Source: an uncultured bacterium (GTDB taxonomy: Bacteria; Hydrothermota; Tepidihabitantia; SM23-42; JAOAFX01). From it: 64,000 nt of DNA. Positions within the stretch are counted from its first letter, which is position 1. Every line of letters starts with the position of its first letter. A program made the translations under genes and the position numbers. The notes under the pieces were generated by a model. The model did not search any database, was not told where the DNA came from, and saw only the letters and a list, made by a program, of their open reading frames with translations. The stretch lies in contig CAZLGA010000002.1 of assembly GCA_964559225.1 (NCBI GenBank), forward strand, positions 11,837 through 75,836, read 5' to 3'. Below, piece after piece: positions 1,936 through 46,168 of the stretch.

Positions 1936-1954
1936 TTGAAACGGAGATTTCTCA

Positions 1955-4051: not shown

Positions 4052-4064
4052 TTTAGAATTAGTG

Positions 4065-11693: not shown

Positions 11694-11836
11694 TCCAAGA
11701 GTTAATAAAGATTTATGGGTTGAGGTTGGGATGCGGCTCTTTTTGAACCACTTAACCAATTACCATTTAACCAAAATATACCAGTTTATCAGCCCCAATC
11801 AAGCAACTATTCCCGGACATTTTGAAGGATACATAT

Positions 11837-14875: not shown

Positions 14876-14979
14876 ATATGAATTCCAGATTCCATACTCA
14901 TCAGAAATACTCAAAGATCAGAAATTGGAATTGGTTTGGTCATCGGTGGTTCGGATTTAGTACTTGATTTTGCGGAGTA

Positions 14980-28793: not shown

Positions 28794-29633
28794 ATGAGAG
28801 AAATTGAATATAATACAATCGTGGAGACGGTTGCACGATTGTGTAAAGAGGCGAATTATTTTTTAGGTGACGATGTATACAATGCCTTGAGAAATGGACT
28901 GGAAAAAGAAGAATCACCAGTCGGTAAAGATATATTGAATCAACTAATTAAAAATGCAGATATTGCAAAAAGTGAACAGATTCCAATGTGTCAAGATACC
29001 GGGTTTGCTGTAGTATTTCTTGAATATGGTGCCGATGTTCGGGTAAAGGGAGATATTAATAAGGCAATCAGTGAAGGTGTTGCAAAGGGATATACCGAAG
29101 GTTATTTGAGGAAATCTATTCTTTCTGACCCGATTCAGGGCAAAAATACAAATGATAATACCCCGCCTATTATACATACTACAATCGTGCCTGGTGATAA
29201 AATAAAGATAACCGTAGCGCCAAAGGGCGGAGGCAGCGAGAATATGAGCGCGGTTAAGATGATGACACCCGCTGCCGGGATTGAAGGGGTGAAGAAATTT
29301 GTCATTGATACAGTGGTGCAGGCGAGTTCCAATCCCTGCCCCCCAATTGTCGTTGGTGTGGGAATCGGTGGTAATTTTGAGTATGTTGCATATCTTGCAA
29401 AAAAGGCCCTATTGAGAAACATCGGTGAAAGACATCCAGACCCATTCTATGCTGATGTGGAAAGAGAACTGCTCGAAAAGATTAATAGGACCGGAATTGG
29501 TCCAATGGGGCTTGGTGGCAGGATTACCTGTCTTGATGTCTTTATTGAAGTCTTTCCAAGACATATCGCTTCTTTCCCTACAGCAATAAATATTAACTGC
29601 CACGCAGCACGACACAAGAGTGCAGTGATATAA
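28794..29633 (+). CDS. Fe-S hydro-lyase alpha subunit (class I fumarate hydratase / L(+)-tartrate dehydratase alpha type).
   Basis: QDTGFAVVFLEYGADVRV and ...GGGSENMSAVKMM segments are typical of the FumA/TtdA catalytic domain. Confidence 0.8.
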   Translation: MREIEYNTIVETVARLCKEANYFLGDDVYNALRNGLEKEESPVGKDILNQLIKNADIAKSEQIPMCQDTGFAVVFLEYGADVRVKGDINKAISEGVAKGYTEGYLRKSILSDPIQGKNTNDNTPPIIHTTIVPGDKIKITVAPKGGGSENMSAVKMMTPAAGIEGVKKFVIDTVVQASSNPCPPIVVGVGIGGNFEYVAYLAKKALLRNIGERHPDPFYADVERELLEKINRTGIGPMGLGGRITCLDVFIEVFPRHIASFPTAININCHAARHKSAVI

Positions 29634-29669: not shown

Positions 29670-30029
29670 ATGCAAAATAACAAAGAACTGCGACAACGTC
29701 TTTATGAATTTGCCCTAAGAATTGTTAAATTTGTTCAATCACTTCCCAAAAACTGGGTCGTACTGGAATTAGGAAGACAACTGCTAAGGTCGGGTACATC
29801 TATAGATGCCAATTACGAAGAAGCCTGTGGTGCGTTCAGCAAAAGTGATTTTATTTATAAGTTGAATACATCGTTTAAGGAAGCAAAAGAAAGCCACTAC
29901 TGGTTACGATTGTTATATAACTCCAAAATTGTGACTAATGAGGAAACGCGATATTTACTCCGAGAATCTGAAGAAATTAGAAACATACTTGGAAAAGGGG
30001 TAAAAACAGCAAGGGCAAACAAAAAGTGA
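29670..30029 (+). CDS. Four-helix-bundle protein (23S rRNA intervening-sequence protein family) inserted between the alpha and beta hydro-lyase subunit genes.
   Basis: ELRQRLYEFALRIVKFVQSLPKN...LGRQLLRSGTSIDANYEEA...EAKESHYWLRLL is the hallmark of that family. 119 aa. Confidence 0.75.
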   Translation: MQNNKELRQRLYEFALRIVKFVQSLPKNWVVLELGRQLLRSGTSIDANYEEACGAFSKSDFIYKLNTSFKEAKESHYWLRLLYNSKIVTNEETRYLLRESEEIRNILGKGVKTARANKK

Positions 30030-30092: not shown

Positions 30093-30650
30093 ATGTCTGA
30101 ACCAATCAGATTGAAAACCCCTCTTTCTGAAGGGGATGTTTTGAAACTTAAAATTGGTGATAGTGTTTTAATCACAGGGAAAATTTACACAGCAAGGGAT
30201 GCAGCCCATAAAAGACTTTTTGAACTTGCACAGAAAGGTGAACCATTGCCTCTTGATTTAAATGGGCAGATTGTGTATTATGCCGGACCCGCACCAGCAA
30301 AACCTGGTTATGTGATTGGTCCAGCCGGTCCCACGACATCGGGTCGGTGCGACCCCTATACCCCTAAATTGCTTGAGATTGGTTTGAAAGGAATGATTGG
30401 TAAGGGTGTGCGTTCAAAGGAAGTGCGTGATGCAATGAAGACATACAAAGCAGTCTATTTTGCGGCGACTGGTGGTGCCGCAGCACTTATTGCCAAAAAT
30501 ATCAAGGCGGTGAAGATAGTTGCTTATGAAGACCTTGGTGCTGAGGCGATTCAGGAACTCGAGGTTGAAGACTTTCCAGTGATTGTTGCCAATGATGCAT
30601 ATGGTGGTGATTTGTATGAAGAAGGTATAAAGCAGTTCAAAAAAGAATAG
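30093..30650 (+). CDS. Fe-S hydro-lyase beta subunit (fumarate hydratase / tartrate dehydratase beta type).
   Basis: KIYTARDAAHKRL...GPAPAKPGYVIGPAGPTTSGR. 185 aa. Partner of the alpha subunit at 28794. Confidence 0.8.
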   Translation: MSEPIRLKTPLSEGDVLKLKIGDSVLITGKIYTARDAAHKRLFELAQKGEPLPLDLNGQIVYYAGPAPAKPGYVIGPAGPTTSGRCDPYTPKLLEIGLKGMIGKGVRSKEVRDAMKTYKAVYFAATGGAAALIAKNIKAVKIVAYEDLGAEAIQELEVEDFPVIVANDAYGGDLYEEGIKQFKKE

Positions 30651-31886: not shown

Positions 31887-32048
31887 GAAAGTTCACACTG
31901 TCTTAAACCAATAACCACGCCTGTTCAAAGAGCAGGGGTCAGGACTAAAACAGTCTGGTCTTTCTGGTCTATTTAGTCTGTTTGGTTTATCTGGTTTCAT
32001 AACTACTTTCGCTACCATAATCATTCTAATTCTGCTGTAGCAGAATCA

Positions 32049-32066
32049 AAAATAAACACCTTTTCC
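32049..32066. repeat. Perfect 18-nt palindrome attctgcTGTAGCagaat. It shares the TGTAGC core with the repeat family below.
   Basis: Seen directly; self-complementary. Confidence 0.5.
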
Positions 32067-32446
32067 ACTACCAGTTTTTTTTCACTAATTAACAATTTTA
32101 TCAACTAAACCTGAGGGAAGATGATTTGAATTTAATTCCTTTACGGGTTCACAGAGAAGAACCCTGAAAGGTTATTTTTTTATTGTTCATAACATTGGTT
32201 GTATTTATTATAAAGGAGATTATAGAGAAATTGAAGATCATAGTGCCTGAAAGTTTGGGAATTTAGGTAAGTGCAGAAATTTCAAAAATGCGCACACCTA
32301 TTTTGGGGAGTTCTGTTTATTACCATATTTTTTGGAATGAAAATAGCACAAATCTGACACAAGAGGGGGTCAGCAATAGCCTGCCCGTCTGAAAAGATGC
32401 CTTGATGAAAAAAGGATTGTGTGGGTGGAATAAACTAATTCCAGAT

Positions 32447-32511
32447 TGTAGCGTCCAGATTTATCTGGACCGAATAGTTTTTTCGTCCATCTAAAGATGG
32501 ACGCTACAGAT
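32447..32511. repeat. Compound head-to-head pair of TGTAGC hairpin elements (REP/MITE-like small palindromic repeats).
   Basis: TGTAGCGTCCAGAtttaTCTGGACcgaatagttttttCGTCCATCTaaAGATGGACGCTACA. The outer TGTAGCGTCC and GGACGCTACA arms are inverted complements, with two inner hairpins. Confidence 0.6.
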
Positions 32512-32590
32512 GCAATACCTAAATTTACTTTGCCTTCGTAGGTGGTAAACACACTTTTCCATTGACAAACTGCAAAAATTTGATAAACTT

Positions 32591-35500
32591 ATGTATATGC
32601 CAGACGATTTAAGGAAGACTATCATTGAAAGGCTTAAACCTCTTTTTGTTCAGTATGATTCAAGTTTTAAAGATTTTTTATCCATAGGTCAAAAAATTGA
32701 TGATGGGCTTCAAACAAATTCAGAAATTTTGAGTGGAATCCCTCATAGATTTAATAACCTCTCGGCAACTGTAGAACTCGTTCTTGAAGGTGTAGATGTA
32801 TTTGATACTGAAATCAAGAAGATGCACGAATTTCTGAAAAAAAGTATTGAGAATTTTAAAGAATCAGTGCTGATATCAGAAAAAATAAGTTCGGATCTTA
32901 ATAATATCGCAGAGGTTTTAAAGCAAATTCAACGCGGTATTAGGAATCTTGCAGAGATTATTTATAATATCAATTTTGTTTCCGAATCAATAGAGGTTGC
33001 CTCAAGAAATGCGGGAATAACTGCTTTTCATGCTGGCAGAGAGGGAAGGGGTTTTGAGGTAATTGCACGAGAGATGACAGTTCTGGCGCGCAATGTCCAG
33101 GGACCGACAAAAGTTATTCCTGTAGTATCTAACGAATTATTAAGAAATATTGATGAATTAAATCAAGATTTAAAAAAGATTCAAGATGTAATTACATATT
33201 TAAGAGAGATTGGTGAAAAGTTTTTGACTATCAATAACGAATTGCTCACCTTGATTCCGGAGCTTGAAAATTCTATAAGGGATATATCTAATAGTATATC
33301 TGTCCAGAAGGATTTGCATATAAATTTGCAAAAAGAAAGTGATAAGTTGTCTGAATATCTTGGTGATATTTATCGTATCATTAGAACAACCGCAATAACA
33401 GAAATGTTTTTAGGTGCATTTTTTCAGCACCTTAATAATTTAAAAAACAACTTGATGATTGCCGAAGACGAACAGAATTTTTATTATATCTTCAATAGCA
33501 TAAAACAGGTATTGGATAATGAACCAAAATTAGAGGGAGGACATGAGGAATTTTTCAATGTTGCATTAAAAAAGCTTGAAATGCATACTTCAGAAAGATT
33601 GATATTACAGTTTATTTCGGAAGCAAAACATCTCAACGAAGTAATAGGAGTAATATCTGAAAGAATAAAATCCTGGACAAAAACCCATAATTTTGCAAAT
33701 GAAGCATTGACCCGTGCCAAAGTTTTTTATAAGGATATTAGTGAATTACTTTGTTCTTTGAATGAAAAATCAAATAACTTAAAGAAACTTATTAATAAAG
33801 TAGAAAGGCCGGTTCAGGAATTAAAAAGGATATCTGAACGTTCGCGTCTTTTGGGTTTATATGCGGGTATTGAAAGTGCACGCAGTGGAAAATATGCTGA
33901 AGCACTCGGGGTTGTTACTAATGAAATTAAGACGCTTTCAATGAGGTCCTCTGAATTCGTTGGAAGCGTTGACTCGGTTGTTGGAGAGATATTGAAGAAT
34001 ATAAATTATCTCATTTCGTGTTTTTCCCGAACTACTGAAGATGTTGAATTGGGTGTAGCGTCTCTAACTATCTCAATGGAGGCAGTTGGTGAGAGCGGTA
34101 AAGTTCTTGATAACATTACAGCTCTTTCGCAAGAAATGTTGTCTTCTACGATGGAAATGGTAAATCAGTGTGGAATGCTTGGAGAACACTACCGGAATTT
34201 TGATACTGAATACCACAAAATAGGTGAATATTTTTCTTCCTATGGAACGACAATAAAATCAGGTGAAGAATTAACAAAGCAAATGAAGACAATTATAAAT
34301 GAGTTCAAAAAAGAGATTTCTCTGCTTACAACCAAGAGGAAGAAGATAGTATTGCGTGCGACTGAAGACCCAATAACACTTGACCCGGCAATAAAAACAG
34401 ATACTACAAGCCATCAGGTAATTGAACAAATATTTACCGGGCTCTATACCTTTGATCAGTTTAACCGATTGATTCCCGGTGTCGCATTATCATTCACAGT
34501 ATCTGAAGACGGAAAGGTTTGGGATTTCCATCTTAAAAAAGGGGTGAAATTTCATAATGGAAAAGAAGTGCAAGCAAAGGATATTTTGTTTTCACTGGAT
34601 AGGGTTAAAAAGGGTCCTAATGCAAATTTTATAGAGTATCTAAACGAGATGGTTGTTATTGACCCTTACCATATAAGGTTTATACTGAAATTTCCTTATA
34701 TTCCGTTTCTTGCAAACCTTGCCTGTGGTGTATGTGATATAGTTCCTTCAGACTTTAATCCAGATAAGCCGGTGGGTTGTGGTCCATATAGACTTGTTTC
34801 TTATGAAAAGAATAACGAAATTGTTCTTGAGGCTTTTGATGAATTCTATGACGGCAGACCACCGATTGATGAATGTGTGATTAAAACCGTCCGAGACGAC
34901 AGGGAAGCGATTGAATTATTTAAAAATGGTGAAATTTCTATCCTTGATTTAACCCCGGATATGCTACAAGAATTTTCGCAGGAAGGAATTTATACGGGTC
35001 CTGCCCTATCTACTCAGTATCTTGCTATAAACTTTTCTAAAAAAAATCCATTTTTTGATTTAAATGTGCGAAGAGCAATGAATTACGCTATTGATCGCGA
35101 CTATTATTGTCGCACATTGTTGAAAGGAAAAGCAATCCCCGCATTTGGAGTATATCCACCCGGACTTCCTGGATATAATAGAAATCTTCAGGTTTATCAA
35201 TATGATATCAAAAAAGCTCGGGATTTAATGCGCCAGGCAGGATTCGGGGGTGGAATTCCAGAGGAATTCGTCTTTGATGTCCGGGCAGGGGTTGATACAG
35301 TCAAAAGGGCAGAATTCATAAAAGATTCGTTTGCCAAGATTGGTATCCATCTACAGATAAATCCCCTGCCCTGGAAAGAGTTTCTTGATAAAACATATAG
35401 TGGAAATAGTGTGCTCAGTCTGAGGGGGTGGGTATCGGACAACGGTGACCCAGATAATTTTGTCTATACACTATTTCATTCAAAGAATTTTGGAGCGAGT

Positions 35501-35740
35501 GGCAACACCTCTTTTTATGCTAATGAAGAACTTGATAAAATGATTGAGTCAGCCAGGGCTGAACAGATTCCAAGACGAAGAATTGAACTATATCAAAAGA
35601 TAGAAAATTTTATTGTGGAGAATGCGCTCTGGGTTTTCATTTCCCACGGAGTCGATTGCTACGCCGTTCAAAAGAATATAAAGGGGTTTACAGTTGACCC
35701 TTTTGGTTTGGTCCGTTTTCGCAACCTATTTTGCTTATAA
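32591..35740 (+). CDS. Soluble chimeric receptor: two tandem methyl-accepting-chemotaxis-protein signalling modules (N-terminal ~590 aa) fused to a C-terminal ABC solute-binding-protein family-5 (OppA/DppA/NikA-type) domain.
   Basis: MCP conserved-domain motifs SESIEVASRNAGITAFHAGREGRGFEVIAREMTVLARN and SERSRLLGLYAGIESARSGKYAEALGVVTNEIKTLS. C-terminal EDPITLDPAIKTDTTSHQVIEQIFTGLYTFDQ...SEDGKVWDFHLKKGVKFHNGKEV is a textbook SBP_bac_5 N-lobe. No signal peptide or TM segment is evident. Confidence 0.75.
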   Translation: MYMPDDLRKTIIERLKPLFVQYDSSFKDFLSIGQKIDDGLQTNSEILSGIPHRFNNLSATVELVLEGVDVFDTEIKKMHEFLKKSIENFKESVLISEKISSDLNNIAEVLKQIQRGIRNLAEIIYNINFVSESIEVASRNAGITAFHAGREGRGFEVIAREMTVLARNVQGPTKVIPVVSNELLRNIDELNQDLKKIQDVITYLREIGEKFLTINNELLTLIPELENSIRDISNSISVQKDLHINLQKESDKLSEYLGDIYRIIRTTAITEMFLGAFFQHLNNLKNNLMIAEDEQNFYYIFNSIKQVLDNEPKLEGGHEEFFNVALKKLEMHTSERLILQFISEAKHLNEVIGVISERIKSWTKTHNFANEALTRAKVFYKDISELLCSLNEKSNNLKKLINKVERPVQELKRISERSRLLGLYAGIESARSGKYAEALGVVTNEIKTLSMRSSEFVGSVDSVVGEILKNINYLISCFSRTTEDVELGVASLTISMEAVGESGKVLDNITALSQEMLSSTMEMVNQCGMLGEHYRNFDTEYHKIGEYFSSYGTTIKSGEELTKQMKTIINEFKKEISLLTTKRKKIVLRATEDPITLDPAIKTDTTSHQVIEQIFTGLYTFDQFNRLIPGVALSFTVSEDGKVWDFHLKKGVKFHNGKEVQAKDILFSLDRVKKGPNANFIEYLNEMVVIDPYHIRFILKFPYIPFLANLACGVCDIVPSDFNPDKPVGCGPYRLVSYEKNNEIVLEAFDEFYDGRPPIDECVIKTVRDDREAIELFKNGEISILDLTPDMLQEFSQEGIYTGPALSTQYLAINFSKKNPFFDLNVRRAMNYAIDRDYYCRTLLKGKAIPAFGVYPPGLPGYNRNLQVYQYDIKKARDLMRQAGFGGGIPEEFVFDVRAGVDTVKRAEFIKDSFAKIGIHLQINPLPWKEFLDKTYSGNSVLSLRGWVSDNGDPDNFVYTLFHSKNFGASGNTSFYANEELDKMIESARAEQIPRRRIELYQKIENFIVENALWVFISHGVDCYAVQKNIKGFTVDPFGLVRFRNLFCL

Positions 35741-36159
35741 TTATGGATACATTGATAGTTTTTAAGGTTGCCGATGAATCAGTCGGCTTAGATATTAAGA
35801 AGGTGCGGGAGGTTACAGAATTATCTTCTTATGTTCCTGTACCTAAAACACCGGATTTTTTAACAGGACTGGCAAATATAAGGGGAGAGGTTGTGCCGGT
35901 CATTTCCTTACGCAAACGTCTTGGTCTTGCCGGCGAGGAGCTCTGTAATATATTAGTGGTTGTTGAAGAAGAAGATAGAATAGCTGGTTTGCGAATTGAC
36001 CATCTGCTCGGGACAAAAAAGATTGATGAAAGATTGATAAATAAGCATTCTGAATTGCTTTCTACGAAAAAAGAAAAGGATTTCTTCATTGGTGCTTATG
36101 AGACCGAAGAGAAACCGATTTTGATATTAAACCTTGCGCGAGTTTTTGCAAAGGAGTGA
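35731..36159 (+). CDS. cheW: CheW-like coupling protein.
   Basis: 142 aa. LIVFKVADESVGLDIKKVREV...IRGEVVPVISLRKRLGL. Overlaps the upstream stop. Confidence 0.85.
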   Translation: MLIIMDTLIVFKVADESVGLDIKKVREVTELSSYVPVPKTPDFLTGLANIRGEVVPVISLRKRLGLAGEELCNILVVVEEEDRIAGLRIDHLLGTKKIDERLINKHSELLSTKKEKDFFIGAYETEEKPILILNLARVFAKE

Positions 36160-36171
36160 TAAAAAAAGATA

Positions 36172-36199
36172 TTGACTTTTTTAAAAATTAAGATAGAAT
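36172..36199 (+). promoter_or_regulatory. Possible internal sigma-70 promoter (TTGACT, 16-nt spacer, TAGAAT) ahead of cheY-cheA.
   Basis: atTTGACTtttttaaaaattaagaTAGAATtaa, ~70 nt upstream of cheY. Confidence 0.3.
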
Positions 36200-36270
36200 T
36201 AATTTACTATGGATATAAGAAAAAGGGTAATCATCTTATCACATAGGAGTTTGAGGAAAAAGGAGGTTAA

Positions 36271-36630
36271 ATGAGAATACTGGTGGTGGACGACGCCATG
36301 TTTATGCGTCGGATGCTAACCGATATTTTAGAAAAAGGTGGACATAGTGTTTGTGGGGAAGCATCAACGGGTAAAGAAGCGGTGGAACGATATAAAGAAT
36401 TGAAGCCTGATTTGGTTACTATGGACATTATTATGCCGGATATGAGCGGGATAGAAGCGGTTAAAGAAATAAAAAAGATTGATCCGAAGGCGAAGATTTT
36501 AATGGTATCAGCAATGGGTCAGCAGGCACTTGTGCTTGAAGCGGTTCAAGCAGGTGCAATAGACTATGTAGTAAAACCCTTTCAACCTTCAAGGGTTCTT
36601 GAGTCTATTGAACGGATTATGAAAAAATAA
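36271..36630 (+). CDS. cheY: CheY-like single-domain response regulator.
   Basis: 119 aa. MRILVVDDAMFMRRML...DIIMPDMSGIEA...AMGQQ. Confidence 0.88.
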   Translation: MRILVVDDAMFMRRMLTDILEKGGHSVCGEASTGKEAVERYKELKPDLVTMDIIMPDMSGIEAVKEIKKIDPKAKILMVSAMGQQALVLEAVQAGAIDYVVKPFQPSRVLESIERIMKK

Positions 36631-36647
36631 GTAATAATTTATAAAAG

Positions 36648-38156
36648 ATGGCTGAAGAATATTTATCCCTTTTTATCAGTGAGACTGAATCATATATAAA
36701 ACAACTTGAAAAGGAACTTTTGGTCCTTGAGAAGGATGGGAAAAACCGAAATTCAATACTTGAGGTTTTTAGAATTTTACACACAATTAAAGGGATGGCA
36801 CAGACAATGGGTTTTGATGAACTTGGTAATTTAGCACACTCAGTTGAAGACTTGCTCACCGAACCCAAAACAAAAGGGAAGATAGATGGAAAAACTGTGG
36901 AATTTCTCTTTATTATAGTTGATTACTTTTCTCAGTTTTTAAAATCAGTAAAAAATAATGTGGTTGCACCACCCGTAATTGAGTTATTGACAATTTGTGA
37001 AGACATTAAACAGGGAAAGGAAGTTACATTAAAGAAAGGTGCGGTTGAAGGTGAAGGATTTGGCGAGATCAGAGTAAAAATGTCAAAGATTGATAATCTA
37101 TTCAATCTTACGAATGAATTACTTATAATAAAATCCCGTCTTGTAAAATTGAGTTCGGAGATAAAAAATAGTGAACTACAAAATATTAGTGAAAATGCGT
37201 CAAGGTTAATATCCGCATTACAGGATGAAATGATGCGATTACGAATGCTTCCATTGTCAACAGTATTTGAATTTTTCCCACGCTGGCTTAGGGATGAGGC
37301 AAAAAAACAGGATAAAGAGGTTGAATTTGTAATAATTGGTGGTGAACTTGAGGTTGACCGTTCAATCATAGATATTCTTAAGGAACCCATTATGCATCTT
37401 TTACGAAATGCCCTTGATCATGGGATAGAGAAAAAGGGCAAAATAACTTTGAACGCAACGAGAGAAAAAGAAATCATTAGAATCAGCGTTTCCGATGATG
37501 GAAAAGGAATTGATTCCGAACAGATTAGAAGACTGATTGTTGAAAGGAATATCGTTGATTATAAAACTGCACAGGCATTGGGCGGTGATGAGTTGTATAA
37601 ATTTTTATTGAGACCCGATTTTTCAACAAAAAAGGATGTATCAAAGGTTTCGGGAAGGGGAATAGGACTTGATATAGTCAATTCTTTTGTTAAGGAATTG
37701 GGCGGCAGACTGGAGATAAAATCGGAGAAAGGGAAGGGCTCAACATTTATTATTGAACTACCCATCAGTCTCGCCGTGATACGTGCTCTTATTTTGAGCA
37801 TGGACAGCCAGCGTTATGCACTTCCGCTTAATTTAGTTCAGGAAACTTTTTATATTGATGATAATAATATCCAGACCGTTTGTAACCATGAACTTATTAA
37901 ACTTAGAAATAGTATTCTGCCTCTGGTTAGAATATCTGAAAAATTAAATTGCACAACAAAGTTAGGGAAAAAATCGGTTGTTGTTGTTAATTACGAAGGG
38001 AAAAAAAGAGGATTTATTGTTGATGAGATATTAAGTGAGGATGAAATTGTTGTTAAAAAAACAGACCGATTTTTGCCTTCTTCACTATATTCAGGCTGTT
38101 CAATTTATGGGGATGGCAAGCCTATATTAATCCTTGATCCGAGGGGGTTTGAATGA
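36648..38156 (+). CDS. cheA: CheA histidine kinase (Hpt-dimerisation-HATPase-CheW-like; no obvious P2).
   Basis: Hpt FRILHTIKGMAQTMGF. ATPase RNALDHGIE...GRGIGLDIV. C-terminal CheW-like domain. Confidence 0.88.
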   Translation: MAEEYLSLFISETESYIKQLEKELLVLEKDGKNRNSILEVFRILHTIKGMAQTMGFDELGNLAHSVEDLLTEPKTKGKIDGKTVEFLFIIVDYFSQFLKSVKNNVVAPPVIELLTICEDIKQGKEVTLKKGAVEGEGFGEIRVKMSKIDNLFNLTNELLIIKSRLVKLSSEIKNSELQNISENASRLISALQDEMMRLRMLPLSTVFEFFPRWLRDEAKKQDKEVEFVIIGGELEVDRSIIDILKEPIMHLLRNALDHGIEKKGKITLNATREKEIIRISVSDDGKGIDSEQIRRLIVERNIVDYKTAQALGGDELYKFLLRPDFSTKKDVSKVSGRGIGLDIVNSFVKELGGRLEIKSEKGKGSTFIIELPISLAVIRALILSMDSQRYALPLNLVQETFYIDDNNIQTVCNHELIKLRNSILPLVRISEKLNCTTKLGKKSVVVVNYEGKKRGFIVDEILSEDEIVVKKTDRFLPSSLYSGCSIYGDGKPILILDPRGFE

Positions 38157-38764
38157 TTGATGCAAAAAATCTTACCGTAAAACAGATTGATGCTCTCACC
38201 GAAGTCGCTAATATTGGAGGTGGGCATGCAGCCACATCATTATCCCAGTTACTTGGTAAAAAAGTAATGATTCGTGTTCCAAAACTTTATACGGGACAAC
38301 TTGAAGAAGTGATATTAAAGATTGCTGACCCCAATGATGTTGTTGCATCAGTTCTATTATATTTCCTTGGTGATTTGACGGGGAGAACTCTCCTTATTTA
38401 TCCTTATGAAGATGCCCAGGAACTAACAAGGTTATTGATGCCAGAAGGACACGAAAGCACAATTGAAATCCAGGAATCACTACTTAAGGAAGTTTCAAAT
38501 ATATTGTCCTGTGCCTATATGAACGCCCTGGGCGAATTACTTGGACTTTTGATTCTCCCTTCAGTTCCCGGGATGATAATTGATATGATTGGTGCGGTTC
38601 TCTCCAGTGTCATTGTTGAATTCGGCAATGAGAAAGACTTTATTTTCTGCATTGAGACTCAATTTGATTTTGGAGATTTCAACAAGCCGTTATCAGCCTA
38701 TTTTCTCTTGCTACCTGATAATTCAAGTTTAGAAGTTATGTTGAAAAAACTAAATTTAGTATAA
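38153..38764 (+). CDS. cheC: CheC-family CheY-P phosphatase (CheC/CheX/FliY family).
   Basis: Both D/S-x3-E-x2-N-x22-P active-site motifs are present: D-ALT-E-VA-N-(22 aa)-P and S-LLK-E-VS-N-(22 aa)-P. Confidence 0.8.
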   Translation: MIDAKNLTVKQIDALTEVANIGGGHAATSLSQLLGKKVMIRVPKLYTGQLEEVILKIADPNDVVASVLLYFLGDLTGRTLLIYPYEDAQELTRLLMPEGHESTIEIQESLLKEVSNILSCAYMNALGELLGLLILPSVPGMIIDMIGAVLSSVIVEFGNEKDFIFCIETQFDFGDFNKPLSAYFLLLPDNSSLEVMLKKLNLV

Positions 38765-38765
38765 A

Positions 38766-41162
38766 ATGATTTCCCCAGAAGAATATAAGGTATTGAAAAG
38801 TTTTGCAGAAAGAATCCCGGCTAATGACCCAGGTGCACATAACAATCTGGCAGTAGTGTATTATAATAAAGGGCTCTATGAGGAAGCAATTCAGGAATTG
38901 GAAAAGGCACTAAGCATTGACCCGAATTTTACGCTTGCAAGAAACAATTTAGAGATAATTTTAAAAAAATCTGGAAAACTTGATAACAAGGTAAAGGAAC
39001 TTGCACACCATATTGATGTTGAGCCATTTGATGAAATAAAAACCCTTGAACTTGCTGATACCTACCGGAAATTGAATCGGTATTCTCAGGCAATAATCTA
39101 CTACCGTAAGGTCCTTGATTTTAACCCAGGTTCTTACGAAGCACATTTTGGTCTTGGTATTACGCTTAGACACCTGGGCAAATATGATGATGCCCTTGAG
39201 GAAATAAAAAAGAGTCTTGAAATAAAGATTTCGCCAGAAGGTTATCGCCTGCTTGGTGAGATATATTTTAACAAAGGCATCATCGACCTTGCGATCAAAA
39301 ATTTCGAGGAAGCAATAATGCTTGATCCAGCTTCGGCTGAAGCTCATTTCTTTTTAGGCTTTGCTATGGGTGAGAAGGGAATGCACAAAGAAGGAAGGGA
39401 AGAAATTAAAAAGGCAATTCAGTTGAATCCCGCACTCGCCCAATTTGAACCAAATCTGCCAATTGAATTAAAAGAACACAAGGGCTACCTTGATTTTTTA
39501 AAGGAACAGCTGGGAGTTCCCAAAAGTTCAGTAAACGAGTTTCAGGTTCATAATAATCTGGGTATTACATACCGGAATAAGGGTTTGTTTACTGAGGCAA
39601 AAAGAGAATTTGAAGAGGCTTTGAAATTTAAAGATGATGATGCTGAATTGTTTGCTTCTTTAGGTGAGGTAAATCTTTTTTTAAACAAACTGGATGATGC
39701 TTATAACTATTTTTCCCGCTGTCTTGCACTTGATTCACTGTCGGTAAGAGGGCTCAATGGTTTGGGCGTTGTCTGTTTAAAGAAAAATAATTATGGAGAG
39801 GCTAAAACTTATTTTGAGAAAGTGCTCGCAGTTGATAAAACTTATATACAGGGTCTTGCGAATCTTGGGCTTGCTAATTATTTATTAAATCAGATTGAAG
39901 AAGCGGTGAAGATTTTTAATGCCGCTATAGAACAAGGTAGTGAAGATGCAAAATACAATTTAGGTATGTATTTTTATAAAAAGGGTGATTATGAACAGGT
40001 ATTAAAACTCTTTAAAGATGAATCTGTTGATAGCAAGTTTTTCCGCGGTCTTGTTTATGCCGAGTTAGGAAGAGATGATGAGGCAGTAACTTCATTTAAA
40101 AATGTCATCAATGTTCTGCCGAGTTATGCAGGTGCATACTATAACTTGGGCTTTTTACTGATGAAAATGGGACAATTTGAAGACGGTTTATCAAATATCC
40201 GAAAGGGTATGGAGATAGAACCGAACTACGAAAAAGAAAAATATCGTATTGCAATTGCACCCGAATTATATGAATATGGCTTATACTATACACCGTTCCG
40301 AATAGAAGAAAAATTTGAAGAAAAAATTATTGAAGAAGTTGAAGAGTTTTTCCCGACTCTGGAAGTTCCCACACCTCAGGATTATATACAGGAAGCAGAA
40401 AATTTGTTGAAAAAGAATGAATTTGATAAGGCGTTAAATATGATTGATGAAGCACTTAAACTCGTTCCGGAAATGAGTGAACCAGTTATACTGAAATCTA
40501 AGATTTTGTTTCAGGCTGGTAATATTGATGATGCACTTAATCAACTTGAAAGTTTTACAAAAAAACACCCTGATGACATTGATTCTATTTTGACACTTGC
40601 GAATATGCTAAAGACACTTGGCAAATTAAAAGAGGCCAAAGAGAAATATCGTAATCTTTTGCTAATACAAAAAGATAATTTTGACTGGCTCAAAGAACTG
40701 GCTTCATTAAGTTTTGCCTTGAATGAGTTGGAAGATGCTTTGATTATTTATAATCAGTTATATGAGAAAAATCCTGACGACATTTCAGTTAATTTAGGAC
40801 TATTGAGTATACACCTGAAGAAAAAGGATTTGGAAAAGGCGGCGAAATATATTGATATGCTTGAGAAAGACAAACCTGAAATTTATGACTTTTACGCTTC
40901 AGCAGGATTGTATTATCTTGAAAAGAATGAACGAAGTAAGGCAAAGAATTATTTTGAACGGGCAGTAGAACTTGAGCCTTCAAAGCCAATTCCTTACTAT
41001 AACCTCGGCATTATTGCTGTTCAGGAGGGTAAATTCGACGAAGCATGCAGTTACTGGAAAAAGGCAATGCTTTTAAGTCCGGACGAAGACCTGGCAAGTA
41101 AAATCACCCATTGTTTGAATATAACTATGGAAATGATGGAATTCTTAAAAAGTAGTTTATAG
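38766..41162 (+). CDS. Large tetratricopeptide-repeat (TPR) protein, 798 aa, inside the che-like operon.
   Basis: Many 34-aa TPR units (..AHNNLAVVYYNKGLYEEAIQELEKALSIDPN..; ..AYYNLGFLLMKMGQFEDGL..). Confidence 0.8.
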   Translation: MISPEEYKVLKSFAERIPANDPGAHNNLAVVYYNKGLYEEAIQELEKALSIDPNFTLARNNLEIILKKSGKLDNKVKELAHHIDVEPFDEIKTLELADTYRKLNRYSQAIIYYRKVLDFNPGSYEAHFGLGITLRHLGKYDDALEEIKKSLEIKISPEGYRLLGEIYFNKGIIDLAIKNFEEAIMLDPASAEAHFFLGFAMGEKGMHKEGREEIKKAIQLNPALAQFEPNLPIELKEHKGYLDFLKEQLGVPKSSVNEFQVHNNLGITYRNKGLFTEAKREFEEALKFKDDDAELFASLGEVNLFLNKLDDAYNYFSRCLALDSLSVRGLNGLGVVCLKKNNYGEAKTYFEKVLAVDKTYIQGLANLGLANYLLNQIEEAVKIFNAAIEQGSEDAKYNLGMYFYKKGDYEQVLKLFKDESVDSKFFRGLVYAELGRDDEAVTSFKNVINVLPSYAGAYYNLGFLLMKMGQFEDGLSNIRKGMEIEPNYEKEKYRIAIAPELYEYGLYYTPFRIEEKFEEKIIEEVEEFFPTLEVPTPQDYIQEAENLLKKNEFDKALNMIDEALKLVPEMSEPVILKSKILFQAGNIDDALNQLESFTKKHPDDIDSILTLANMLKTLGKLKEAKEKYRNLLLIQKDNFDWLKELASLSFALNELEDALIIYNQLYEKNPDDISVNLGLLSIHLKKKDLEKAAKYIDMLEKDKPEIYDFYASAGLYYLEKNERSKAKNYFERAVELEPSKPIPYYNLGIIAVQEGKFDEACSYWKKAMLLSPDEDLASKITHCLNITMEMMEFLKSSL

Positions 41163-41184
41163 GTGAAGGAGGTTATGATTAAAT

Positions 41185-42252
41185 ATGGCAGATGAACTTG
41201 CAATGGACTCCAAAGCACTCATATTTGCTACACTGGCAGATGTCTATTTAACTTCGGGTATGGTTGATGAAGCAATATCAATTTTAAAAGATGGGTTGAG
41301 TAGAAATCCCAATTATACACTCGCTAAGATAATCCTGGGAAGGGCATATTATCTTAAAGGCGATATAGAACAAGCACGGAAAATTCTTGAAGAAATATAT
41401 GAACAGGCAAAAGAAAGTGAAAACGAAAATCTTTATTTAGGATATATATATAACAAACTTGGTGATTATGAAAAGGCAATCCAATTTTATGAGGCAACAT
41501 TAAAGATAAATCCTGAAAATAAAGAGGCAAAGCAAGAGCTTGAATTGTTAAAACCAAAGCCACAGGTTGTTGAGGTTGAGAAAGGGGTAGTGCATGAAAG
41601 ACCTTTTGAGACTATTACCCCTGAAATGATTGCAGTCCCGAAAGAGAAAATTACTAAACCTGAACTGCCGATAGAGGAAGTTATTGAGAAGATAGAACCT
41701 GAAAGAGAAAAGATAACTGAACCAGAACCGGAAATTAAACCTGAAGAAGTTTCAAAGTCTGAACCGGTTCAGGTGGTTCCTGTCCAGAAGCCTGTGGAGG
41801 TATCGAGGAAAGAAGAGGAGATAGAACTTATACCCGTTTTACCGGAAATAGGACTTGAGCCTGTGGTTGAAGAGAAAGAAATTGAAAAAGTAAGTCCGCT
41901 TGATGCCTTGAACGAACCTATGAAAAGATTGACTGATATAAAGTCTGTAAAGGGTGCATTTATATTATCACGCGATGGGTTACTCATTCAGAGTTATTAT
42001 CAAGGCAGGGATGATATAGAAGAAATTTGTGCTCTTCTTGCCGGCGTATACAATGATGCCGACAATGCCTTTAAATTTTTGCAAACGGGTTGTTTAGAAA
42101 AGTTTATTATTGAAAAAAGTGATGAGACAATCTGTGTAATTACAGCAGGTGAATCACTTTTGTGCATAATAACAAAGCCTGAAGCAAAACCAGGACTTGT
42201 ATTTGTTTATGCACGCAAAATTATTGAAGAAATTAGAAAAATACTGGGGTAA
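41185..42252 (+). CDS. TPR domain, then a Pro/Glu/Lys-rich linker, then a Roadblock/LC7 (MglB-like) domain protein.
   Basis: N-terminal TPRs. Low-complexity linker KPELPIEEVIEKIEPEREKITEPEPEIKPEE. C-terminal LTDIKSVKGAFILSRDGLLIQSYYQG is a Roadblock fold signature. Confidence 0.7.
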   Translation: MADELAMDSKALIFATLADVYLTSGMVDEAISILKDGLSRNPNYTLAKIILGRAYYLKGDIEQARKILEEIYEQAKESENENLYLGYIYNKLGDYEKAIQFYEATLKINPENKEAKQELELLKPKPQVVEVEKGVVHERPFETITPEMIAVPKEKITKPELPIEEVIEKIEPEREKITEPEPEIKPEEVSKSEPVQVVPVQKPVEVSRKEEEIELIPVLPEIGLEPVVEEKEIEKVSPLDALNEPMKRLTDIKSVKGAFILSRDGLLIQSYYQGRDDIEEICALLAGVYNDADNAFKFLQTGCLEKFIIEKSDETICVITAGESLLCIITKPEAKPGLVFVYARKIIEEIRKILG

Positions 42253-42255
42253 GTT

Positions 42256-42555
42256 ATGGATTTATCTCAAATTATAAAAATTCCGAGGGTTTTAGGCGTG
42301 GGTCTGGCAACTTATGATGGTTTCATAATAGATAGCCAGCTCGTTCATGGCTTTGATGCAGAAAAATTTGGAGCAATGTCAGCAAAGATTGTGAATCAAA
42401 TCAAAAGAAATTTTGGGAAGGAAAATCCGTCTATAATCCTTTATACAGATAAAATCATATTTCTTGCAAAGGCAAAGAACGAAGGTGTCTTTTTTGTCGT
42501 TGCAGATAAGGAAGCAAACTTAGGTCTTATCAAAATAAAATTTGAAAAGATGTAG
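42256..42555 (+). CDS. Stand-alone Roadblock/LC7 (MglB-like) domain protein.
   Basis: 99 aa. IPRVLGVGLATYDGFIIDSQLVHGFDAEKFGAMSAKIV. Confidence 0.7.
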   Translation: MDLSQIIKIPRVLGVGLATYDGFIIDSQLVHGFDAEKFGAMSAKIVNQIKRNFGKENPSIILYTDKIIFLAKAKNEGVFFVVADKEANLGLIKIKFEKM

Positions 42556-42596: not shown

Positions 42597-43304
42597 ATGA
42601 AAACAATATTGGTTCGGTTGTTAATTATGATACTCATATTTGGCTGTCGCCAGAAGACGAAAACAAATACACCCTGGCATGAAATAGCACGCAGACAGAT
42701 GGTGAAAGAACAGATTGTTGCGCGAGGGATTATTGACTCAAATGTAATAAATGTAATGCTCAAGGTTGAAAGACACAAATTCGTTCCCAAGGAATACGAA
42801 AGATATGCATATACAGATGGACCTTTACCTATCGGTGAGGGGCAGACGATTTCCCAGCCGTATATTGTGGCGTTAATGACCCAAGTTTTAGAACTCAAAG
42901 GAAGCGAGAGGGTCTTAGAAATTGGCACTGGCTCAGGATACCAGGCAGCAATTCTATCACTTCTGGTAAAAGAGGTTTATACGATTGAAATAATTCCTGC
43001 GCTTGCAAATTCAGCACAGCAGCGCCTTGAAAGTCTTGGTTATAAAAATGTATATGTAAAATGTGGAGATGGATTTCTGGGGTGGCCAGAAAAGGCACCA
43101 TTTGATGGAATAATAATAACCTGCGCAGCACCAAGGGTTCCTGAACCATTGATAGAACAACTTGCAGAGGGTGGTAGACTGGTAATGCCCGAAGGTGAAG
43201 ATTGGCAGATGCTCGTCTTATACAAAAAAATTGGTGGTGGATTACAAAAGAAGGAACTTATTCCTGTCTTGTTTGTGCCTATGAAAGGGAAGATAAGAGA
43301 GTAA
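42597..43304 (+). CDS. pcm: Protein-L-isoaspartate O-methyltransferase with an N-terminal lipoprotein-type signal.
   Basis: GEGQTISQPYIVALMT...VLEIGTGSGYQAAIL. Signal MKTILVRLLIMILIFGC. Confidence 0.88.
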   Translation: MKTILVRLLIMILIFGCRQKTKTNTPWHEIARRQMVKEQIVARGIIDSNVINVMLKVERHKFVPKEYERYAYTDGPLPIGEGQTISQPYIVALMTQVLELKGSERVLEIGTGSGYQAAILSLLVKEVYTIEIIPALANSAQQRLESLGYKNVYVKCGDGFLGWPEKAPFDGIIITCAAPRVPEPLIEQLAEGGRLVMPEGEDWQMLVLYKKIGGGLQKKELIPVLFVPMKGKIRE

Positions 43305-44342: not shown

Positions 44343-45227
44343 CTACTTCTTGGGACAACTATCATCGTGTCGTTCTCCCATTGTTATTTCCATAGCAGTT
44401 TTAATCCCATTGCCCACTGCGATTGCTGTCTGTCTAAAAATCTTATTCTTCACATCTCCAATCATATATAACTTTTTGTTTTTTTCAAGCATTTTTAGTT
44501 TATGTTTTATATTTTTGCTTAAGAAATCAAGGTTTGGTTCCCGACCGATTGCCACAATAAGATAGTCTACAGAAACTGACTTTTTATTCTTTGGATGTAA
44601 AACGAGTTTCTTATTCTTTAATTGAATTTTTGTAATTTCAAAATTGGTTATATACATTATATTCTTATTTTCCATACATCTTTTAAAAAGTATTGGCAGG
44701 CATTTATGTTTATCAGTTCTATTGAATATGATAATTTTATTCTTTTTGCTTAAACCTATTGCATAATCAAATCCTGCGTCACCCGAACCAATTATTCCAA
44801 TTTTTTTCCCATTTAGTTTTTTAAGGTTAACAACTTCATAAAATATTTTTGATTCAGTATTGCGTGGTATCTTAATATTCAATCTTTTCGGCTTTGTTCC
44901 TGAAGCAACAATTAGTATTTCTGACTGGTATCTACTCTTATTTGTTTTAATCGAAAAACCATCTTTATAATCAATAGATTCAACATTTTCTTTTGTAGGA
45001 TTTATATTGTTGAACTCCAATTGTCTGCAAAAAAGATTCACAAGTTCTTCGCCTGTTATTTTTTCGGGAAACCCTAAGTAATTTTCAACAAGATTGGCAT
45101 TTCTAAGGAGACCACCCGGCTTATTCCGTTCAAATATAATAAAATCAATCTCATATCTTTTCAGTTGTATCGCGCAGGCAATACCAGCAGGACCAGCACC
45201 GATAATTGCGACTTTGAATGTTCTCAT
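44343..45227 (-). CDS. FAD/NAD(P)-binding oxidoreductase of the thioredoxin-reductase structural family. No redox-active CxxC is evident.
   Basis: VAIIGAGPAGIACAI and a second IGIIGSGDAGFDYA dinucleotide motif. 294 aa. Confidence 0.7.
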   Translation of the reverse strand: MRTFKVAIIGAGPAGIACAIQLKRYEIDFIIFERNKPGGLLRNANLVENYLGFPEKITGEELVNLFCRQLEFNNINPTKENVESIDYKDGFSIKTNKSRYQSEILIVASGTKPKRLNIKIPRNTESKIFYEVVNLKKLNGKKIGIIGSGDAGFDYAIGLSKKNKIIIFNRTDKHKCLPILFKRCMENKNIMYITNFEITKIQLKNKKLVLHPKNKKSVSVDYLIVAIGREPNLDFLSKNIKHKLKMLEKNKKLYMIGDVKNKIFRQTAIAVGNGIKTAMEITMGERHDDSCPKK

Positions 45228-45580
45228 TTAATCAAATTTTCTGTAAGAACAGGAATGGCAAATCCATAGGTGAGATTTATAAGTGTAGCGCGATGCATCA
45301 TTTCATTCTGGGTTGCGGTTCCATCAATGACAAAGAATACTTCAAACCCCTTCATGAATGCATTCCGAGCTGTGGTCTCGCAGCACAAATTTGTCATAAC
45401 GCCAGTGACGACAACCTGCTTTGCTTTAAATTTTTTCAAAAGTTTTTCTAAATTCGTTTTGTAAAATGCATCATACTGGGTTTTTACAATTACAGGTGAG
45501 CCAGGCACATAGATTTCATCGCTCAGTTTGTAATAATCATTATCCTGTGTAATTATCTCGTCCCACCATTTCTTGAGCAT
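45224..45580 (-). CDS. Isochorismatase-family hydrolase, C-terminal part (frameshifted in an A9 run).
   Basis: VVVTGVMTNLCCETTARNAFMKGFEVFFVIDGTA is the catalytic Cys region. Confidence 0.7.
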   Translation of the reverse strand: MLKKWWDEIITQDNDYYKLSDEIYVPGSPVIVKTQYDAFYKTNLEKLLKKFKAKQVVVTGVMTNLCCETTARNAFMKGFEVFFVIDGTATQNEMMHRATLINLTYGFAIPVLTENLIK

Positions 45581-45618
45581 ACCAGCATTTTTCCGAGTAT
45601 TAATATGCTGGGTGAATA

Positions 45619-45867
45619 TTACCGGTCTTTTTTTTTACGAAAAAGTTCTATGAGTTTATTAATATTTGGAATTATTGCAGGTGCTGAAGGTATAAATGCG
45701 TGCGAGTTTCTTTCAAGAAAGTATTTCTGCATATCAATAACAAGCAGGGCAGAGGTTTCAGGATTAAATTTTATATAGGGAAAATGATAGAGTACCCTTA
45801 ATTCTCTTAAAAATTTTCTGGACTTGTTTAAAATATTCTTATGAGTAAAATAAATTTCTTTACCCAT
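45619..45867 (-). CDS. Isochorismatase-family hydrolase, N-terminal part.
   Basis: [12 protein letters not shown]. It ends FRKKKDR* encoded across the A9 run (plus-strand T9 at 45628-45636). One extra A restores ...[26 protein letters not shown], joining the downstream ORF. Confidence 0.7.
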
Positions 45868-46168
45868 TCACCTGAGACTTTTTCTGGTTTATTGGCGGTA
45901 GTTTATTGCATTTTTGTTGATATTCATCAATCAATTTCTTGTATTCTTTTTCTGGTTCGCTTGTGGTTTGGAATCTGAAAAATGCAGCGATATTGAAATC
46001 CGGGTCTTTTTTTTCAAAGATTAATTGCATAGTCTGGGCAAGGCTCTGTGTACATCCAATATAAACAATATCCTGCAAAATATCCGATAGTTCAAATACC
46101 CCGGGATAATCCGGTGCATTCTTTAACTGCTCGGGTATCAATTTTCTCCATCCACTATCAATTGGCAT
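45860..46168 (-). CDS. Hypothetical 102-aa protein with a degenerate GIY-(10)-YIG-like motif.
   Basis: [22 protein letters not shown]. The conserved Arg and His are lacking, so the assignment is weak. Confidence 0.4.

Follow-up and report, generated by a model that had tools for sequence, protein, structure and literature searches.

What does a chemotaxis-type phosphorelay control in a bacterial lineage for which no flagella have been reported? The question is raised by eight genes in a stretch of 64 000 nt from an uncultured bacterium (GenBank assembly GCA_964559225.1, contig CAZLGA010000002.1, positions 11,837 to 75,836 of the forward strand), a stretch that we call the window throughout. 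Genes for a receptor, CheW, CheY, CheA and CheC are followed there, on the same strand, by genes for a large tetratricopeptide repeat (TPR) protein, for a TPR protein that carries a Roadblock/LC7 domain, and for a small stand-alone Roadblock/LC7 protein; these last three are referred to below as the triad. The answer to which we lean, with only a little more confidence than doubt, is that this cassette encodes a non-flagellar chemosensory pathway of the WOR-3 lineage, built from two modules, a Che input and a TPR/Roadblock output. What is new here is probably the architecture of the receptor on one side and the candidate output of the pathway on the other. Literature searches returned nothing on a Che-Roadblock operon, on chemosensing in WOR-3 or on this receptor.

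Organization and conservation of the cassette

The eight open reading frames (ORFs) are tightly packed on the + strand between positions 32591 and 42555 (Table 1), with successive gaps, from the receptor gene to the last Roadblock gene, of -10, 111, 17, -4, 1, 22 and 3 nt. The TTG start of cheW overlaps the receptor stop by 10 nt (an alternative start is the ATG at 35743) and the start of cheC overlaps the cheA stop by 4 nt; the receptor start in the NCBI annotation is the ATG at 32597. All eight products are predicted to be cytoplasmic, and a transmembrane-grade hydrophobic segment or a Walker A motif was found in none of the eight. The Pfam hits of the Che-pathway domains (MCP, CheW, the CheA domains and the CheY receiver) all exceed the gathering scores. 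An earlier, sequence-only reading of the locus had described a compact eight-gene operon with overlapping stops and starts, and its ORFs, domains and spacing proved to be as described.

The same eight genes occur in the same order in about 25 loci, which come from WOR-3 genomes and metagenome contigs and differ in their flanks. Among the WOR-3 genomes with the cassette two are complete, CP070834.1 (2.38 Mb) and CP070664.1 (2.85 Mb). A scan for the TPR-Roadblock protein with one genome per species gave ten loci, eight of them titled candidate division WOR-3 or 'bacterium', one 'uncultured bacterium' and one 'TA06 DG_78'; several isolate names among them suggest metagenome-assembled genomes (MAGs) from hot springs. 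A tblastn comparison found the whole cluster collinear in every scan locus that was long enough. Further loci came from look-ups of exact proteins and from a metagenome scan, which brought the related loci to 54 in all. Among the loci with a named source the cassette is specific to the WOR-3 lineage. Across the ~25 loci, protein lengths hardly change: 1046-1049 aa for the receptor, 140-144 for CheW, 119 for CheY, 501-509 for CheA, 203-204 for CheC, 791-798 for the TPR protein and 99-113 for the final Roadblock protein, the linker of the TPR-Roadblock protein being the only part that varies. Collinearity of eight genes on this scale is far beyond chance, and since the flanks differ between loci, the cassette is a unit that moves and persists as a whole. 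The physical linkage of Che and Roadblock genes, pointed out at first in the window only, was thus found again when synteny was checked.

Identity to the window proteins is highest for CheY (Table 1), which is as constrained as the PilT of the same genomes (85-92% identical between loci); this suggests that CheY may have to satisfy several partners simultaneously. The distance between the cheC stop and the start of the TPR gene is also conserved, the two being 1 nt apart or overlapping by 4 nt in essentially every locus.

Two other arrangements were found besides the full eight-gene cassette, which we call type A. In type C (L047, L049, L050 and L051), the genes for the TPR, TPR-Roadblock and Roadblock proteins are followed by a gene for a protein-L-isoaspartate O-methyltransferase (PCMT) and preceded by cstA and carbamoyl-phosphate synthase genes, and no che gene was found in up to 7 kb upstream. 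In type B (L043 and L044), a set encoding CheY', CheC' and a small TPR protein precedes genes for CheY, CheC, the TPR, TPR-Roadblock and Roadblock proteins and PCMT; receptor, CheW and CheA are absent at the locus itself, and the ornithine carbamoyltransferase gene beside it is one that also borders a type A locus. CheY' shares 71% identity with its counterpart in the window. In a neighbour-joining tree of the TPR protein, type C forms a separate deep clade and type B falls inside the type A clade (the tree labels of four contig-truncated loci are artefacts). Taken with the three arrangements, the tree indicates that the triad is the older and self-sufficient unit and that the Che block would have been gained or lost once, at depth. 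Of the Che parts, CheY and CheC have, on the same comparison, the closest tie to the triad, because L043 and L044 keep them directly upstream of it and have them duplicated with the small TPR protein. A specific homology of this small TPR protein (in L044) to the N-terminus of the 798-aa TPR protein was considered and rejected, the similarity being that of TPRs in general.

The best of 33 matches to a promoter consensus ends 1 nt before the receptor ATG (Table 1). The region holds no more such matches than shuffled sequences would lead one to expect, and a promoter there, which would imply a near-leaderless transcript, has weak evidence behind it. The receptor gene is preceded by a non-coding gap of 704 nt (31887-32590), without a match in Rfam, that holds a 24-nt imperfect inverted repeat (32447-32470 and 32485-32508) with a small hairpin within each arm.

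Table 1. Features in and around the cassette (positions are those of the window unless a locus is named; identities are ranges across loci)
Feature	Position	Strand	Basis and remarks	Identity to window protein
Promoter-like site, TTGACA-16 nt-TAAACT	32562..32589	+	TG ahead of second hexamer; ends 1 nt before receptor ATG	
Receptor, 1049 aa	32591..35740	+	Pfam MCPsignal, two stretches; SBP_bac_5, E 1e-83	45-85%
CheW	35731..36159	+	Pfam CheW, 98 bits	54-87%
CheY, single-domain response regulator, 119 aa	36271..36630	+	Pfam receiver	89-99%, most conserved in cassette
CheA, 502 aa	36648..38156	+	Pfam Hpt, H-kinase_dim, HATPase_c and CheW domains	49-87%
CheC-type CheY-P phosphatase, 203 aa	38153..38764	+	Pfam CheC	78-98%
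TPR-only protein, putative scaffold, 798 aa	38766..41162	+	Pfam TPR families; begins 1 nt past cheC stop	50-91%
TPR-linker-Roadblock protein, 355 aa	41185..42252	+	Pfam Robl_LC7, 41 bits (cut-off 23)	
Stand-alone Roadblock/LC7 protein, 99 aa	42256..42555	+	Robl_LC7, 19.1 bits, under cut-off 23; AF2 model and Foldseek	43-86%
PCMT	42597..43304	+	Pfam PCMT, 221 bits; lipoprotein-like signal	
accC-PilT-accB block	L014 17091-21413	-	also in L008, L028, L029, L034, L038, L043, L044, L047, L050, L051	

A cytoplasmic receptor with two signalling hairpins and a DppA-like domain

The C-terminal 465 residues of the receptor (aa ~584-1046) form a complete DppA-like solute-binding domain. Its SBP_bac_5 match reaches 282 bits and covers profile positions 2-366 of 368 (Pfam), E. 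coli DppA (PDB 1DPP) aligns with it over residues 11-504 with E-values of 4e-63 to 3e-64, and a Foldseek comparison of the receptor model with DppA gives template modelling (TM) scores of 0.84-0.86. An Asp equivalent to DppA D408 (in WVSDNGDPDNF) is at least 90% conserved in 35 receptor orthologues, whose consensus also retains an Arg that aligns to within one column of DppA R355; from DppA structures, we take D408 and R355 to be the residues that bind the amino and carboxyl ends of the peptide. With the full two-lobed fold and the Asp/Arg pair, the domain is, as far as sequence and model go, of the DppA type (SBP_bac_5, cluster C) and a predicted binder. In 7 loci the cassette has as its immediate neighbour cstA, a gene for a peptide transporter, which fits a receptor that senses imported peptides without proving it.

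The N-terminal 580 residues hold two signalling regions. The AlphaFold2 (AF2) model, with a mean confidence (pLDDT) of 88, has long helices at residues 5-122, 126-288, 330-429 and 431-573, followed by the fold of a solute-binding protein, and NCBIfam models for methyl-accepting chemotaxis proteins (MCPs) match at two regions, 95-178 and 346-526. The tip of the first hairpin is canonical (AGREGRGFEVIAREM, aa ~147-161) and that of the second is divergent (IESARSG...GVVTNEI, aa ~427-446); both are invariant in the 35 orthologues. By sequence and model the receptor is thus a predicted double-signalling-domain (DosM-like) protein, with two MCP signalling domains per polypeptide. It had been called 'chimeric' in the sequence-only reading, a term that suits the fusion with a solute-binding domain but leaves the description incomplete, as there are two signalling hairpins. 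The fusion family is confined to this cassette: it comprises 60 clusters, all of ~1048 aa, those named by taxon being WOR-3, and in the family search E-values drop from 1e-241 to plain solute-binding proteins at 1e-41. A receptor that is at once fused, cytoplasmic and double-tipped is not described in the literature that we searched.

A complete phosphorelay of probable F1-like ancestry

CheY can be aligned over its full length with Thermotoga maritima CheY (1TMY; E 5e-50, ~70% identity by manual count from the alignment), also matches archaeal CheYs, and has, by eye, the receiver residues DD 7-8, D52, S80 and K101. CheA consists of P1 (with its His in LHTIKG), P3, P4 and P5, lacks P2 and a receiver domain, and ends at its CheW domain; the P3-P5 part matches T. 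maritima CheA (1B3Q) with an E-value of 1e-74. CheC matches T. maritima CheC (1XKR; E 8e-26), and the two phosphatase sites ascribed to it from the outset (D/S-x3-E-x2-N-x22-P) are indeed present, at aa 13 and aa 109. The best NCBIfam models for these three proteins are CheY_Halo, CheA_Halo and CheC_Thtogales, with scores all far under the equivalog cut-offs.

In an exhaustive HMMER search of 1.8 billion representative sequences, the CheAs of the cassette collapsed to two full-length representatives (48% and 41% identity) plus two fragments, and one of these clusters includes a WOR_3 SM23_60 protein. Beyond this clade there is a continuum of generic CheAs at 33-41% identity, none of the outside representatives exceeding 41%. 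We conclude from these comparisons that the Che core appears to descend from an F1-type lineage and to form a clade of its own, F1-like by similarity. By the same measure the core does not resemble the alternative cellular function (ACF) or type IV pilus (Tfp) class, its closest relatives being Thermotoga and archaeal F1-type proteins. The phosphorelay has its catalytic His, its receiver residues and the two sites of CheC and is complete and apparently functional, and with an MCP domain, CheW, a full CheA and a CheY that has the phospho-acceptor Asp, the cassette is, judged by these features, a Che pathway in the generic sense.

The TPR and Roadblock proteins

The 798-aa TPR protein was found in 40 loci, Che-less ones included, and its conservation profile is highest in residues 1-280 and in the last ~60 residues. 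In the 355-aa protein, a TPR part (residues 1-120) is followed by a linker and by a Roadblock/LC7 domain (aa ~236-355). Conservation is highest in its first 60 residues and in the Roadblock domain; the linker is variable, rich in E, P, K and V, and drives a total length that ranges from 288 to 583 aa. This family contains at least 196 clusters at 90% identity. A profile of its Roadblock domain matches a Thorarchaeota Roadblock (7F8M) at 1.7e-10, CvnB5 at 9e-5 and MglB at 0.01-0.02.

The 99-aa protein is a Roadblock protein according to its model, despite its sub-threshold Pfam score. The AF2 model, made with 27 orthologues, has a pLDDT of 92.4 and the element order of the Roadblock alpha-beta-alpha sandwich, namely helix, two strands, long helix and three strands, and the top PDB matches in Foldseek are all Roadblock/LC7, LAMTOR/Ragulator, Asgard Roadblock, MglB and MglC structures (probability 1.0, TM scores 0.75-0.87); in addition, the family profile matches Asgard Roadblock structures in PDB at E 8e-4. 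Both Roadblock assignments made at first sight therefore hold, one by its Pfam score and the other by model and Foldseek. This protein and the Roadblock domain encoded upstream are distant paralogues (24% identity, hhalign E 1e-4), its gene always lies directly after the TPR-Roadblock gene, and it is likely to be the heterodimer partner of the TPR-tethered Roadblock domain.

MglB-family proteins are reported to be 129-179 aa long, and the presence of mglA within a few genes serves as a mark of the family (PMC4316618). The Roadblock proteins of the cassette, by contrast, would not seem to belong to that family: a GTPase gene is not adjacent, their sizes are 99 aa and, for the domain, ~120 aa, and their profiles are closer to Asgard Roadblock. 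The description of them as MglB-like was not supported, Asgard Roadblock and CvnB proteins being closer than MglB. Marks of an interaction with CheY were sought in the triad. No difference in conservation that could point to a CheY docking site was seen between Che-linked and Che-less loci, and nothing convincing was found by eye, in the N-termini of the triad, that would resemble the CheY-binding peptide of FliM.

Missing partners and biology of the lineage

Pfam scans of 58 ORFs of the window (with three exceptions, every non-nested ORF of 110 aa or longer) detected no CheR, CheB, CheD, CheV, flagellar, pilus, gliding or small-GTPase gene, in agreement with what had been said of cheR, cheB, cheD and flagellar genes. 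None of these four was found within +/-10 kb of the cassette in any locus either, and cheR, cheB, cheD and cheV are missing within 30 kb in the window and within 10 kb in the two complete genomes. A P-loop scan of ORFs of 140-330 aa in 52 loci and the window, and the precomputed Pfam hits of loci L053 and L054, likewise gave no small GTPase. Elsewhere the window encodes housekeeping and redox functions and other signalling proteins, and scans for tRNAs and Rfam families gave no match. As to the type IX secretion system (T9SS) context that had been proposed, four cargo proteins with Por_Secre_tail/CHU_C sorting tails are indeed encoded, but no secretion machinery is found in the window; control of gliding received no support in this analysis.

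The 'Pyropristinus' assemblies (Ca. Caldipriscus and Thermoproauctor, EM3/WOR-3 lineage) are without any flagellar synthesis genes and contain cheB, cheY and cheC (PMC4791363, Colman et al.). The first and only cultured WOR-3 isolate, sy37, is a thin rod with pili (PMC12285271). A non-flagellar role, as suggested earlier for the cluster, is to this extent in keeping with a lineage without reported flagellar genes (PMC4791363) and with an isolate that is piliated and non-motile (PMC12285271). The accessible part of the text and supplements of a study of 181 WOR-3 genomes does not mention flagella or chemotaxis, and the accessible part of the supplements of a paper on CheA architectures has no WOR-3 entry.

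Thirteen related loci carry a bona fide pilT gene that is flanked by accC and accB and sits 2-7 kb downstream of the triad; a TPR protein gene follows (Table 1). The PilT protein (368 aa) matches Thermus PilT (5FL3) at E 1.7e-113. Retractile pili are therefore plausible in the group. The placement of PilT inside an acetyl-CoA carboxylase cluster (accC for biotin carboxylase, accB for biotin carboxyl carrier) is odd but conserved.

Comparison with known systems

The Che core resembles the F1 cores of Thermotoga, Bacillus and archaea in that CheY, the P3-P5 part of CheA and CheC are best matched by Thermotoga or haloarchaeal proteins and in that both CheC sites are kept. It differs by the absence of CheR, CheB, CheD and CheV from the cassette, by a P2-less CheA that forms its own clade, and by a unique cytoplasmic fusion as receptor. 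The CheR, CheB and CheD proteins and the flagellar or archaellar output that go with F1 systems were encountered neither in the window nor within +/-10 kb of the loci, in a lineage without reported flagella (PMC4791363).

With the Frz system of Myxococcus xanthus the cassette shares a cytoplasmic receptor, a Che-type kinase and two Roadblock paralogues, and the Frz response regulators act on a Roadblock polarity module and not on a flagellar switch. But the Myxococcus Roadblock genes lie outside the frz operon, whereas here they are co-transcribed with the che genes, and a CheA-receiver fusion (FrzE), a dual-receiver FrzZ, a CheR (FrzF) or a CheB (FrzG) is not found in the cassette. The only receiver in the cassette is that of the 119-aa CheY, and its Roadblock domains are only marginally like MglB. 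In Myxococcus, pilus polarity also involves large TPR proteins (SgmX). Guzzo et al. are said to have found in 2018 that FrzX, a single-domain CheY-like protein, acts at MglB. A link from Frz through RomR to MglA and MglB is described in Myxococcus (PMC3441718).

For the receptor, two parallels can be drawn. The soluble receptor DosM of Vibrio cholerae (F9 system) carries two signalling domains and staples a cytoplasmic array (PMC7534058). The cassette receptor is likewise soluble, with two MCP signalling domains per chain, and may also build or stabilize a cytoplasmic array; it belongs to another Che class, however, its second tip is divergent and has no GRGF motif, and it carries a C-terminal DppA-like sensor. 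The E. coli receptor Tap detects dipeptides by way of DppA (PMC8050422). In both cases a DppA-family protein would feed information on a ligand to an MCP, and the cassette receptor retains counterparts of D408 and R355. But E. coli DppA is free, periplasmic and docks on a transmembrane receptor, whereas the DppA-like domain of the cassette is fused to the C-terminus of the receptor, all of it cytoplasmic, without signal peptide or transmembrane segment.

Finally, the conservons of Streptomyces (kinase CvnA, Roadblock CvnB, CvnC and GTPase CvnD) also co-encode a histidine kinase and a Roadblock protein, to which the CvnB5 match at 9e-5 adds a similarity in sequence. They differ in that the kinase here is a CheA with CheW, CheY and MCP and not a membrane CvnA, and in that a DUF742 protein and a GTPase are missing. 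In the survey of MglB proteins, orphan homologues account for 328 of 749, none of them characterized, and no linkage to Che is noted (PMC4316618).

What could the pathway control?

The two-module pathway would work as follows. The input module comprises the cytoplasmic double-hairpin receptor with its DppA-like domain, CheW, the P2-less CheA, the F1-type CheY and CheC. The receptor would report the intracellular level of imported di- or oligopeptides and set the activity of CheA through CheW; CheA would phosphorylate CheY, and CheC would reset it, with no methylation-based adaptation in the operon. The output module, that is the 798-aa TPR protein and the putative Roadblock heterodimer, may be a scaffold that is bound or remodelled by CheY-P, a role suggested by conserved co-transcription and by the modular distribution of the genes. 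By analogy with MglB/MglC, Ragulator and CvnB, such a scaffold would most likely regulate an NTPase encoded elsewhere. About the process under control we may only speculate, and our best guess is that it governs where retractile type IV pili are placed or how active they are, or else cell polarity, because the lineage is piliated and aflagellate, PilT is encoded nearby and there is a Che-to-Roadblock precedent in Myxococcus (PMC3441718). The FrzX-MglB connection reportedly provides another.

Several observations weigh against this pathway. The only link between CheY and the triad is co-transcription; the triad exists without che genes and must then have a function of its own, and the adjacency could be inherited synteny. 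A partner for the scaffold, be it a small GTPase or another NTPase, is absent from the window and within 10 kb in all 54 loci, the Roadblock domains are only marginally MglB-like (E 0.01-0.02), and the 99-aa protein is shorter than the 129-179 aa of the MglB family (PMC4316618). The ligand is assigned from two conserved residues and a similarity of fold, in a family, SBP_bac_5, whose members also bind nickel, opines and oligosaccharides. A 'cheB' listed in one genome of the WOR-3 lineage means that adaptation enzymes may be encoded elsewhere (PMC4791363). Isolate sy37 was non-motile under the microscope (PMC12285271). The PilT gene, enclosed by accC and accB, runs on the opposite strand, and the window has none.

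The main rival takes the che genes and the triad as independent neighbours: CheY would act elsewhere, on a pilus motor, a T9SS or gliding component or an enzyme, and the triad would be a housekeeping scaffold held in an ancestral gene order. The deep clade of Che-less triads (L047, L049-L051), which likewise has cstA on its upstream side and PCMT on the other, speaks for it, as do the conservation profiles of the triad, which are alike in Che-linked and Che-less loci, and the case of PCMT, which shows that non-functional synteny can be equally stable. It accounts less well for the cheC/TPR junction, kept at 1 nt or a 4-nt overlap in essentially every locus and without a terminator-like site in the terminator scan of the window, for the L043 and L044 loci, which keep CheY and CheC on the triad without receptor, CheW or CheA and have them duplicated with another TPR protein, or for the many loci with shuffled flanks in which the eight genes never separate. 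We consider independence of the two modules unlikely. The same degree of doubt applies to a strict Frz-like switch, in which the Roadblock proteins would be a GAP (GTPase-activating protein) or scaffold of the MglB/MglC type for an MglA-type GTPase encoded at a distance, CheY-P gating the GAP and thereby reversing pilus polarity. Such a switch, which is how the sequence-only reading saw the locus, would be a special case of the two-module pathway. It is plausible, as the Roadblock folds are confirmed, with MglB and MglC among the Foldseek matches, two adjacent Roadblock paralogues recall MglB plus MglC (PMC7949163, PMC4719450), orphan MglB homologues are common (328/749; PMC4316618), and relatives of an aflagellate and piliated lineage have PilT nearby. 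Against it stand the lack of an MglA-like gene in the window and the 54 loci, the MglB profile match at 0.01-0.02 compared with 1e-10 for Asgard Roadblock, a 99-aa protein under the MglB size range, a CheA without receiver, the lack of FrzZ-like, CheR and CheB proteins, and a core that is F1-like and not ACF-like.

Ordinary flagellar F1 chemotaxis, with flagellar and cheR, cheB and cheD genes elsewhere in the genome and the TPR/Roadblock proteins as accessories, appears to us very improbable. CheY, CheA and CheC are, it is true, closest to chemotaxis proteins of Thermotoga and haloarchaea, and a 'cheB' is present in one assembly of the lineage (PMC4791363). But the 'Pyropristinus' assemblies are without flagellar synthesis genes (PMC4791363), sy37 is non-motile and has pili only, the accessible text and supplements of the 181-genome study are silent on flagella and chemotaxis, the sole receptor of the cassette is cytoplasmic and lineage-specific, and cheR, cheB, cheD and cheV are missing over the distances given above for the window and the two complete genomes. 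Returning to the two-module pathway, its boldest version would be that a flagella-free phylum uses a Che phosphorelay with an intracellular dipeptide sensor hard-wired to a TPR/Roadblock unit, CheY-P directly switching the Roadblock heterodimer and, through it, an NTPase machine (for pili, polarity or possibly secretion). We hold this version as a tentative conjecture that is rather improbable. If true, it would be the first operon-encoded Che-to-Roadblock output and an evolutionary intermediate in which Che pathways were recruited to eukaryote-like Roadblock/GTPase polarity modules.

Other features of the window

The PCMT gene next to the cassette (Table 1) was considered as a member of the pathway and rejected, on account of its export signal and of its absence from several full cassettes; the enzyme is probably outside the pathway. 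It is adjacent in 23 loci, Che-less ones included, and is absent in L013-L015, L022, L028, L034 and L038. The N-terminal lipoprotein-type signal, MKTILVRLLIMILIFGC (…LIFGC), implies an exported repair enzyme.

Further downstream, a gene of the isochorismatase family (45224-45867, - strand) is split in two frames at a run of nine A (TCGTAAAAAAAAAGACC, ~45628-45643). The same split occurs at the same codon in two other species-level MAGs (L001 14137-14783 and L003 16171-16814), and the gene is intact in L006, L013 and L022. That the frameshift is shared between MAGs and lies in a homopolymer favours programmed frameshifting or transcriptional slippage over an assembly error. A DUF7508 protein of ~100 aa is encoded at 45860-46168 (- strand), and 17 related loci have such a gene, on one strand or the other, no more than a few kb downstream of cassette or triad. 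The ORF of the nitroreductase family at 47167-47505 (- strand; 112 aa) matches only the C-terminal part of the Pfam model and is probably truncated or mis-started, its counterparts in L001 and L003 having 186 aa.

Upstream of the cassette, positions 7676-15384 hold a tandem-duplicated pair of the heterodisulfide-reductase type, in which two HdrA-like flavoproteins of 1017 aa are each followed by an MvhD/FlpD-like protein; this duplication is preceded by ferredoxin and CCG-domain proteins and by two-component genes (426-6171). A 119-aa gene product of the '23S rRNA-intervening sequence protein' family is encoded at 29670-30029, between the genes for fumarate hydratase subunits (28794-29633 and 30093-30650).

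Implications

The outputs of non-flagellar chemosensory systems are mostly unknown, and in this cassette a candidate output, a Roadblock scaffold, is encoded in the operon itself. The Roadblock family organizes small GTPases and motors in Myxococcus and in eukaryotes (Ragulator, dynein). On the input side, a receptor that combines two hairpins with a fused cytoplasmic DppA domain suggests the sensing of imported peptides and not of external gradients. The significance of the cassette would rise if the link between CheY and the Roadblock proteins were demonstrated and would fall if the modules proved independent; its eight proteins, each of them small or soluble and of thermophilic origin, are suited to biochemistry and structural work. 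If CheY-P does bind the scaffold, the cassette would provide a compact model for how a phosphorelay talks to Roadblock/GTPase modules, and also a way into the behaviour of WOR-3, a phylum that is widespread but has only one reported cultured isolate.

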